A stretch of DNA of 36,905 nt from a virus. Lineage: Duplodnaviria > Heunggongvirae > Uroviricota > Caudoviricetes. This document shows, piece by piece, positions 33,001 through 36,000 of the stretch; the first letter of the stretch is position 1, and every line of letters begins with the position of its first letter. The position numbers were made by a program. The stretch lies in IMG/VR virus record IMGVR_UViG_2645727604_000018; one strand, 5' to 3'.

Positions 33001-36000
33001 GCTGCTGGTGGTGCTGGTGCATTGTCTGACTGGCTGTTGCGCCATATTAAATCCTGCCAGTGGCCACACGGCGATTATCATCACAGCGAAACCGTCATTC
33101 ACCGTTATGGTACCGGCGCAATGGTGTTGTGCTGGCACTGCGACAACCAGCTGCGTGACCAGACATCCGAATCACTCGAGCAACTTGCTCATCAAAACCT
33201 GTCAGCATGGATGATTGACGTCATCGGTCACGCAATAAGCGGTACGCAGGAGCGTGAATTATCTCTGGCTGAATTATCCTGGTGGGCGGTCCGCAATCAG
33301 GTGGCGGACGCGCTACCGGAAGCGGTATTACGTCGTTCGCTGGGGTTGCGTGCGGAAAAAATCCGCTCAATGTACCGTGAAAGCGACATCGTACCGGGAG
33401 AGCAGACCGCCACCAGCATACTGAAGCAGCGCACAAAAAATCTTGCGCCGCTGCCTCACGCCCACCAGCAACAGAACCCACCACAGGAAAAGACGGTGGT
33501 CAGCATTGCCGTTGATCCTGAGCCTCCGGAATCTTTCATGAAACGACCTAAACGTCGCCGCTGGGTTAACGAGAAATACACACGCTGGGTGAAGACTCAG
33601 CCGTGTGCGTGTTGTGGTAAGCCAGCCGACGATCCCCATCACCTGATTGGTCATGGTCAGGGCGGAATGGGGACAAAATCTCACGATATTTTCACGCTAC
33701 CGCTGTGTCGGGAGCATCACAACGAGCTTCATGCGGATCCGCTGGCGTTCGAAGAAAAGCATGGCTCTCAGGTTGATTTAATTTTTCGTTTTCTTGATCA
33801 CGCCTTTGCAACTGGCGTGCTTGGGTAAAAGAGGTGACTGATGCTCATAGATTTGGTTTTACCTTACCCGCCAACGGTGAACACCTACTGGCGACGTCGT
33901 GGCAGCACATATTTTATCTCGGAGGAGGGAAAGCGTTATCGCCGGGCTGTGGCGCTTATTGTTCGCCAGCAGCGGCTGAAATTAATCCTGTCCGGAAGGC
34001 TGGCGATAAAGGTGATTGCAGAGCCACCGGATAAGCGTCGTCGCGACCTGGACAATATCCTGAAAGCACCGCTGGATGCGCTGACGCATGCGGGAGTGTT
34101 AATGGACGATGAGCAGTTTGATGAAATCAATATCGTTCGTGGTCAGCCAGTATCTGGTGGACGTCTGGGGGTGAAGATTTACCCCATAATGCTTGAAGGG
34201 CAGGTCAAAAAATGAAACTGGAAGATTTACCGAAATACTACTCCCCAAAATCCCTCGGCCTGACTGATGCATCGGCCTCAACGTCGAAAGATACGCTGAG
34301 TATCACTGATGTGATGGCCGCGCAGGGCATGACACAGAATTGGGCTGAGATGGGGTTTTCTGCGTTCCTTGGGAAAATGGGCATTAGTATGAATGACAGA
34401 GAGCGGGCAACAGAATTGCTGACAGAATATGCACTCAGTCGGTGTGATCGCGTGGCGGCGTTAAGAAAACTCCCGGCAGAAATAAAACCGGCAGTGATGC
34501 GTATTATGGCTTCGTATGCGTTTGAAGATTATGCCCGTAGCGCGGCGAGCAAAAAACAGTGCCCCTGTTGTCACGGAAAAAAATTTATTGAAAGCGAGGT
34601 TTTTACAAACAAGATCCAGTATCCGGATGGTAAGCCGCCAGTGTGGGCAAAGTGCACAAAAGGCGTGTATCCGTCTTACTGGGAGGAATGGAAAAAAGTC
34701 AGGGAGGTGGTAAAAGTTGCCTGTCCGGAGTGTGGAGGGAAGGGAGAGGTATCCACTGCCTGTAAAGATTGTCGTGGGCGCGGTGTTGCCATTCATCGTG
34801 AAGAGTCGGTAAAACGTGGTATGCCTGTTATCAGAGACTGCCAGCGTTGTGGTGGTCGTGGCTATGAAAGATTACCTTCAACGGAGGCATTTAATGCCAT
34901 ATGTAATGTAACCGATGCCATATCTCTTGATACATGGAAAAAAACAGTTAAACGTTTTTACGATACGCTGGTGGTGCAGTTTGATATTGAAGAAGCATGG
35001 GCAGAACAACAACTGAAAAAGGTGACCAGATAGCTTTGTTGATTTTTCCCGAATCTGTGGTAAATTTGCCCTAACGATGGGCGTTTTATGCCTGACGTTA
35101 GAAGATTTTTTACACCCGTCGCCAGGCGGGTTTTTTTATGACTGAAATCACGCCAGTACAGTAAACGCGCTGGTGGTTGTGAATACCGGTCTTTCAGCTT
35201 GCTGGCTTTTTCGACAAGAGTTATTGGTGTGTCACGTTAACCGGAAAAAGGAAAGTTTGAGAAACGCGATCTGGCACAGGCGGTTATTAATGCTGCCTAC
35301 CTGGTGGCCTGTGCAGATGGTGAATGTGAGGCTTCCTAGAAAGCGAAGATCGAACAGGTACTGCGTAATCAGCCTGCGCTGTCCGCGTTTACGTCAGAAA
35401 TTAATGCGATTAGCGCAACCATTATCGGTCAGCTGGATACGAACTTTAAAACTGGTCGTCGTGCGGCGTTACGTGAGATCGAGGATGTGAAACACGATAC
35501 GCGTGAAGCGGAAGATGTGCTGGATGTGGCGGTGGCCATTGCGGAGGCAGACGGCGAAATTGAGCCGGAAGAGCGCAAGGTGCTGGAAGAGATTGCCGGT
35601 GTTCTGGGTCTTCGTCTGGAGAATCACCTGTGACGGTAAAACTGCGCCTGGCTGTGGCTGCACTCCTGCTGTTTCTGGTGGTGATGGTGGATTTCACCAG
35701 CAGAATCATGTCGGTGCTGGCGGATGGGGTGCTGGTCTGCGGCATTGTGGTATTGCTGTAGCCGGTGATAAAAAGAAACAGCCTGCATAATGCTTGATTT
35801 TTTTATTTGCTGTTTATTAAAAATACTACTGCATGGTGAATCCCCCTGTGCGGAGGGGCAATCAGCAAGTAGGTATATGTGATAATCGCGGATTCAGGTG
35901 CTGATACTGAATTCACCGGGAGGCACCCGGCACCATGCAAGAAAAAGAATGTGCATGCAAAAATGCCCCTCTCCGGAGGGGCATTTTTTATGGGTAAAAA

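Follow-up and report, generated by a model that had tools for sequence, protein, structure and literature searches.

A probably dead copy of the phage tciA–tciB cassette behind the Q gene of an Escherichia coli lambdoid prophage

The window analyzed here is the 36,905-nt IMG/VR record IMGVR_UViG_2645727604_000018, which derives from a tailed phage (Caudoviricetes), and all coordinates refer to positions on its one strand as presented. Downstream of the Q antiterminator gene of an Escherichia coli lambdoid prophage it contains tciA–tciB, an accessory cassette of phages, in a copy that is very probably, at a rough probability of 0.88, dead or nearly so. The initial annotation had described at this site a TerB-like frame with an internal TAG and without an ATG, whose stop overlaps the start of a small hydrophobic open reading frame (ORF), and had regarded the two as a decayed moron after Q. 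Analysis of the sequence confirmed what had been observed, and its interpretation appears to be essentially right, as the upstream gene belongs to the Q family PF03589 and intact relatives of the cassette are available. Alignment with intact TerB-domain genes of related prophages, proposed as a check on the annotation, yielded 143-aa tciA genes that have an ATG start and GAG at the site of the TAG.

Translation of the window sequence reproduced the TerB-like frame with its internal stop and missing ATG. The frame is open from 35241, directly after an in-frame TAA (35238-35240), to a TGA at 35631-35633. It is interrupted by an amber codon (TAG) at 35337-35339, which is followed by 97 open codons, and no ATG is present in this frame between 35241 and 35633; the sole GTG 5′ of the TAG sits 11 codons before it. 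The TGA overlaps the GTG start of the hydrophobic 43-codon ORF (35630-35761) within the tetranucleotide GTGA at 35630-35633, just as had been noted. This ORF and its coordinates hold as annotated, while its product reads MTVKLRLAVAALLLFLVVMVDFTSRIMSVLADGVLVCGIVVLL and the peptide quoted earlier lacks the first two of these residues. The feature start at 35233 had to be abandoned, since homology to intact genes begins only at 35252/35253, which corresponds to codon 18. The locus is composed of the following features:

34212..35033, + strand: Q antiterminator gene, 273 aa (ORF; PF03589 Antiterm, E 4.7e-50; 'antitermination protein' in the identical locus of E. coli RM14723)
35034..35252, + strand: Q-proximal leader block, presumed pR′/tR′ region (contiguity with the Q type, hairpins; candidate promoter)
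35250..35255, + strand: deletion junction with A-rich microhomology, GGAAAG / AAAAAG (collinearity with the 09-02E prophage locus)
35253..35633, + strand: tciA (TerB-domain) pseudogene, codons 18-143 plus TGA (PF05099, phrog_632, PGAP pseudogene)
35337..35339, + strand: amber codon, tciA codon 46, GAG>TAG (alignments to JLK-2012 and Evi)
35487..35633, + strand: 48-codon GTG-start fragment ORF within the pseudogene, probably not a gene (ORF list, phrog_3920)
35630..35761, + strand: tciB (DUF3927) gene for a small two-helix membrane protein, truncated 43-aa allele (PF13064, phrog_1470)
35759..35797, + strand: tciB codon 44 amber (TGG>TAG), then 12 untranslated codons and the old TGA (alignments to O157:H7 F8798 and Evi)

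Both members of the pair belong to described families. When the amber codon is read as Glu, the remnant at 35253-35633 matches the Pfam family PF05099 (TerB) with 47.7 bits (cut-off 24.4, E 2.2e-12), compared to 60.2 bits for the intact TciA of phage JLK-2012. The small ORF matches PF13064 (DUF3927) with 45.6 bits (cut-off 25, E 6.8e-12) over profile positions 2-41 of 53. In PHROGs the two families are filed in the moron category, intact TciA as phrog_632 ('tellurite resistance') and TciB as phrog_1470 ('TciB-like...'), to which the window protein aligns with an E value of 1.6e-21 over positions 1-43 of 54. BLAST searches against phage records retrieved the pair under the label tciA/tciB in phages JLK-2012, P1, P7 and D6; intact lambdoid TciA shares 51% amino acid identity with P1 TciA, and for TciB of the window and of P1 the identity is 53%. 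The closest solved structure of intact TciA is that of TerB (2JXU; E 4.4e-8, residues 14-137). TerB-type D-G-x5-E acidic motifs occur twice in the remnant: the second (ADGEIEPEE) is intact, and the first (ADGECEAS*) ends in the amber codon and has lost its closing Glu. A full-length translatable TerB gene is not present in the window, which lacks the start codon and codons 1-17 and contains the TAA and the TAG. Judged from these similarities, the pair is a homolog of phage P1 tciA/tciB, and the small ORF is best assigned to TciB/DUF3927, the conserved partner of TciA, and not to an orphan.

Intact tciA genes (143 aa, ATG start, GAG at codon 46) were found in phages Evi and JLK-2012, in E. coli 09-02E and in a second prophage of E. 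coli RM14723. In Evi, a Q gene of the same family is followed by tRNA genes for Met, Lys and Arg, by tciA (143 aa) and by tciB (55 aa), and the second RM14723 prophage likewise has the intact arrangement of Q, tRNAs, tciA and tciB. The 09-02E prophage carries, in this order, Q, a 66-aa ORF, a DNA methyltransferase gene, three tRNA genes, tciA, tciB and a gene for a SASA esterase. These lambdoid cassettes and the one of PNUSAE019785 are 90-98% identical to the window at the nucleotide level over 35252-35800 and, like it, occupy a slot between Q (plus tRNAs) and a SASA/NanS-p-type esterase gene. They possess, however, the ATG, codons 1-17, GAG at codon 46, a TciB of 54-55 aa and the tRNA cluster, all of which were lost from the window. 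The Stx2a phage Stx2_EH1910 has the same layout as 09-02E, with Q, the 66-aa ORF, the methylase gene, three tRNAs, cargo and SASA esterase gene, but stx2AB stands where 09-02E has tciAB, and its Q and the adjoining leader are 99.5% identical to those of the window. Compared to this Stx2a slot, the cargo in the window is tciAB and not Shiga toxin, and the 66-aa ORF, methylase and tRNA genes are also missing. The presence or absence of the moron varies: depending on the prophage, tciAB, stx2AB or neither stands behind this Q and leader.

The absence of a tciA start codon is explained by a defined deletion. The window is collinear with positions 1-575 of the 09-02E prophage locus and resumes at position 2501, so that 1925 bp were lost, and with them the 66-aa ORF, the DNA methyltransferase gene, the three tRNA genes and tciA codons 1-17. 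Since AAAAAG is present at both breakpoints in the 09-02E locus, the event looks like a microhomology deletion; the in-frame TAA lies five codons before the junction. The second lesion affects codon 46, which is TAG in the window versus GAG in Evi and JLK-2012. According to its motif position in the sequence, Glu46 closes the first D-G-x5-E motif (D39...E46), the counterpart of D117...E124 in the second. Three viral-contig copies have the amber codon and retain the ATG start, and Y37C is common to all amber alleles on viral contigs, which places the amber mutation before the deletion. No suppressor tRNA gene was found in the window, where the only tRNA genes, tRNA-Asn and tRNA-Ser(cga), are approximately 15 kb away.

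The 43-aa TciB of the window also departs from the 54-55-aa form of its relatives. Codon 44 is TAG instead of the TGG found in O157:H7 F8798 and Evi, and the proteins of the relatives run 12 residues further (WPVIKRNSLHNA) to a stop at 35795-35797. The truncation removes the C-terminal (W/F)PxxK motif and the polar tail (profile positions 42-53), as translation stops after residue 43. This motif directly follows the second hydrophobic helix in all five full-length TciB homologs aligned, including those of P1 and enteropathogenic E. coli (EPEC) E2348/69. The invariant residues of the TciB alignment, D21, F22, S24, D32 and G33 (a D-F-x-S loop and a D-G in helix 2), are retained in the window protein. 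Hydropathy analysis revealed two hydrophobic segments, which in the long form span approximately residues 5-20 and 26-47, and a GGAG (35618-35621) is located 8 nt 5′ of the GTG. The 43-aa peptide could thus still be translated during induction, minus its conserved tail.

From these data the following course can be proposed. In its intact state the cassette would belong to the late operon of lambdoid prophages, behind Q, the leader and a tRNA cluster, in the same slot as stx2AB of Stx2 phages. TciA would be a soluble 143-aa protein with TerB fold and TciB a protein of 54-55 aa with two hydrophobic helices, and both are probably translated together, because the two genes overlap at their stop and start. 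The 134 aligned copies show such an overlap almost without exception, and the P1 and D6 genes share one base. TerB is associated with TerC in ter operons. This analogy, the overlapping stop and start, and the co-occurrence of the two genes in lambdoid, P1-like and jumbo phages suggest that TciB might be a two-helix inner-membrane partner of TciA. In the window, the tciA start and the first 17 codons were lost when short A-rich repeats were joined by the 1.9-kb deletion, and with the TAA 5′ of the junction and the amber codon at the conserved Glu46, TciA can no longer be made from it. tciB has kept its ribosome-binding site and GTG and lost its translated upstream partner, and the second amber codon cuts off the (W/F)PxxK tail. 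If made at all, the 43-aa product is likely to be non-functional or weakened.

Expression of the pair with the late operon under Q antitermination appears plausible, because no separate promoter was found. The block of approximately 220 bp 3′ of Q is found next to the same type of Q in further prophages, one of them that of an Stx2a phage; the identity of the contiguous stretch is 99.5% in Stx2_EH1910 and approximately 90% in 09-02E, and the block occurs at approximately 95% in many E. coli genomes that lack tciA. It contains two terminator-like hairpins (35067-35083 and 35114-35131), and its 3′ end is the ribosome-binding region of the displaced 66-aa ORF. A late promoter (pR′/tR′) is presumed here from the position of the block, and TTGATT and TAAATT with a 17-nt spacer and an upstream TG can be discerned by eye; a consensus scan of the leader detected no plus-strand promoter site at threshold. 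Consensus scans of the region 5′ of tciA were likewise negative for plus-strand sigma-70 sites in both the window and Evi, and yielded none at threshold that could drive a separate tciB transcript; the only sigma-70 match is a chance-level site on the minus strand inside tciA. In the same type of scan, a hairpin resembling a terminator was placed before tciA of Evi, and no such hairpin after tciB. The Q protein itself has four CxxCxGxG repeats and, beside the Antiterm domain, a sub-threshold match to the DnaJ central zinc finger (30.6 versus 32.7 bits).

The lesions are widespread. Among 5426 complete E. coli genomes, with amber contexts counted as exact matches, the 41-nt context of the tciA amber codon occurs in 576 genomes at 961 places, and 5′-intact tciA in 723 genomes. 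The tciB amber context was found in 96 genomes (112 places), compared to 650 genomes (2752 places) for the TGG context. At least 80% of a 797-nt query that represents the whole arrangement including the junction is covered in 484 complete genomes, and the tciA amber allele is present on 89 viral contigs. The exact 43-aa TciB was encoded on at least 992 contigs, and the exact 55-aa form on at least roughly a thousand. This recurrence of the same junction and amber codons in independent assemblies rules out sequencing or assembly errors as the source of the stops and the missing start; that the gene is intact in the organism has a next to negligible probability. The locus is in fact already known. 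An identical copy (100%) in E. coli RM14723 is annotated by RefSeq/PGAP as 'tellurite resistance TerB family protein', a pseudogene with an internal stop, at the positions matching 35271-35633, followed by a 'DUF3927 family protein', and the same holds for O157:H7 F8798; it is thus a publicly annotated TerB pseudogene, accompanied by a shortened representative of a small-protein family that is already on record.

Signs of decay were analyzed in the 134 aligned copies, which were extracted with exact anchors, so that alleles varying inside the anchor are missed. Private substitutions show a non-synonymous to synonymous ratio of 6:4 in amber alleles versus 6:40 in intact alleles (Fisher p 0.004), and those of the amber alleles include D39N, a change of the metal-motif Asp, and three changes within the 48-aa fragment. 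Where tciA is dead, 12 of 26 haplotypes carry lesions in tciB (W44* and several frameshifts); where it is intact, 4 of 41 do (p 0.001). These haplotypes are not phylogenetically independent. Such linked lesions fit the idea that tciA and tciB work together and decay together; they are suggestive and not proof. Several points weigh against a dead cassette. Full-length tciB is retained in 23 of the 48 copies with dead tciA, which is compatible with TciB acting alone. The haplotype counts are phylogenetically non-independent, and recombination among prophages shuffles alleles. The late promoter is assigned by position. The window tciB may still be made, as its GTG and a credible ribosome-binding site are in place and the two hydrophobic segments are preserved, and with the 43-aa allele on about a thousand contigs a residual or altered function is conceivable.

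In an alternative reading, only tciA is a remnant and the 43-aa peptide is made in late transcription as a stand-alone small inner-membrane protein that acts, for example, in exclusion, membrane stress or modulation of lysis. The DUF3927 match, which is still above the cut-off, and the DUF3927 ORF of EPEC E2348/69, which has no TerB gene, would agree with it, as would the retained start codon, GGAG and helices, the 23 full-length copies and the contig count. It is nevertheless unlikely, because the truncation abolishes a motif that is conserved in all five full-length homologs and also in a protein of an Erwinia jumbo phage, tciB lesions are enriched after the death of tciA, W44* is a minority allele, and translational coupling to tciA is gone. 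A slightly less probable view is that the truncated TciB is not junk: the widespread W44* allele might be a selected attenuation of a full-length TciB that is mildly harmful when unpartnered, or the peptide might be a neo-functional membrane peptide that stands alone and is made on prophage induction, with the broader module of tRNAs, TerB and (W/F)PxxK protein forming an uncharacterized system at the phage–host interface.

Far less probable than either is continued expression of the tciA frame, by amber read-through or suppression or in the form of a 48-aa C-terminal fragment started at GTG 35487. The 97 codons open behind the TAG could be taken as a hint in this direction, as could the fragment ORF, which gene callers pick often enough to form phrog_3920, and the low overall ratio of non-synonymous to synonymous polymorphism (pN/pS) of 0.16 in amber alleles. 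However, even if the TAG were read through, the frame would still lack a start codon and be closed by the upstream TAA, and the window provides no suppressor tRNA. The low pN/pS is due to variants that amber and intact alleles have in common, a pattern to be expected when prophages residing in one host recombine, whereas the private changes described above point to relaxed constraint, also within the fragment. Furthermore, GAGG is, as read from the sequence, merely 2 nt 5′ of the GTG at 35487, and half a TerB bundle would be unlikely to fold. The fragment ORF (35487-35633) matches phrog_3920, a 48-aa profile that corresponds to TciA residues 96-143. This family ('unknown function') seems to consist of GTG-start fragments picked by gene callers in amber pseudogenes and looks like an annotation artefact.

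The preferred reading, a dead or nearly dead tciA–tciB cassette, is mainly of value for correct annotation: the locus should be recorded as a tciA pseudogene and a truncated tciB, no new gene for a small membrane protein being present, and the 48-aa ORF that has seeded a PHROG family should be left out of gene counts. Prophage lineages in E. coli of the enterohemorrhagic (EHEC) type can, moreover, be conveniently marked by the mapped deletion and the two amber alleles, and the intact TciA/TciB pair occupies the Shiga-toxin slot in many lambdoid prophages. On its own, the locus is ordinary and matters little.

The cassette of phage P1 resembles the window in that a TerB-domain TciA is followed by a DUF3927 TciB with overlapping stop and start, and in P1 the genes lie beside phage tRNA genes. 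The window differs from it by carrying the pair in a lambdoid prophage, within the late operon, instead of in a plasmid prophage, with tciA a pseudogene and tciB truncated. The tci name of the P1 genes was given by homology. No tciC homolog follows tciB in the window, where the subsequent 30-aa ORF has no similarity to P1 TciC, and no tciC is annotated in the intact lambdoid cassettes. PADLOC defense models gave no meaningful match to TciA, TciB or TciC (best E 0.0035, to PDC-S48 over 35 residues). For the function of DUF3927 or tciA/tciB, the literature offers annotation-level mentions and a test by CRISPR interference, in which P1 tciA, tciB and tciC were non-essential (PMC10695390). In a study of D6-like plasmids, the tci genes are discussed as morons, and the predicted resistances are still to be tested (PMC6799933). 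TerB of the terZABCDEF operon, which confers resistance to tellurite, phages and colicins, shares PF05099 and the duplicated D-G-x5-E acidic motifs with TciA. The window, in contrast, lacks terZ, A, C, D, E and F, and the partner is a 55-aa DUF3927 protein and not TerC. TciA is not known to confer such a resistance.

A TerB gene with a small two-helix (W/F)PxxK ORF beside phage tRNA genes is found in P1-like phages (P1, D6), lambdoid phages and an Erwinia jumbo phage. In this jumbo phage, Asesino (extracted locus 1151-1762), terB is followed by a 60-aa ORF, gp7, which carries (W/F)PxxK and has no Pfam DUF3927 match, yet can be aligned to the profile of TciB with a probability of 85% in hhalign (E 6e-6). 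In EPEC E2348/69 (extracted locus 1638-2625), the DUF3927 ORF follows a 247-aa ORF without Pfam match, which is not TerB, and the Q gene is of a different type; the partner of TciB-like proteins can accordingly be a different one or be absent. In E. coli EC2 (extracted locus 2486-2599) and many genomes of extraintestinal pathogenic E. coli (ExPEC), approximately 75 nt of the tciA 5′ end run into tciB-like sequence (...KKFEKRDLAQAVIGVGVMVDFISRIMSVLAD...). This different remnant of the cassette carries the annotation of an incomplete DUF3927 pseudogene in EC2, and remains of the insertion sequences IS21 and IS200 adjoin it.

Directly after tciB, two prophage small RNA (sRNA) genes are arranged back to back, and the long tciB form ends 8 nt before the first of them:

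35805..35995, + strand: STnc100 sRNA gene, downstream neighbor outside the cassette (Rfam RF02076, 146 bits versus gathering score 47)
35996..36057, − strand: AgvB anti-GcvB sRNA gene, downstream neighbor (Rfam RF02702, 96.5 bits versus 56)

The SASA-family esterase gene starts at 36204. TerB has been listed among the genes that typically flank prophage Pas sRNAs in a preprint of 2026 (10.64898/2026.05.13.724894). Elsewhere in the window, Rfam models identified a sok antitoxin RNA (31342-31516, + strand, 110 bits) and DicF (24932-24983, − strand, 76.7 bits), which is typical lambdoid prophage content. Several kb 5′ of these lie tRNA-Asn (19350-19425, − strand) and tRNA-Ser(cga) (20417-20506, + strand).

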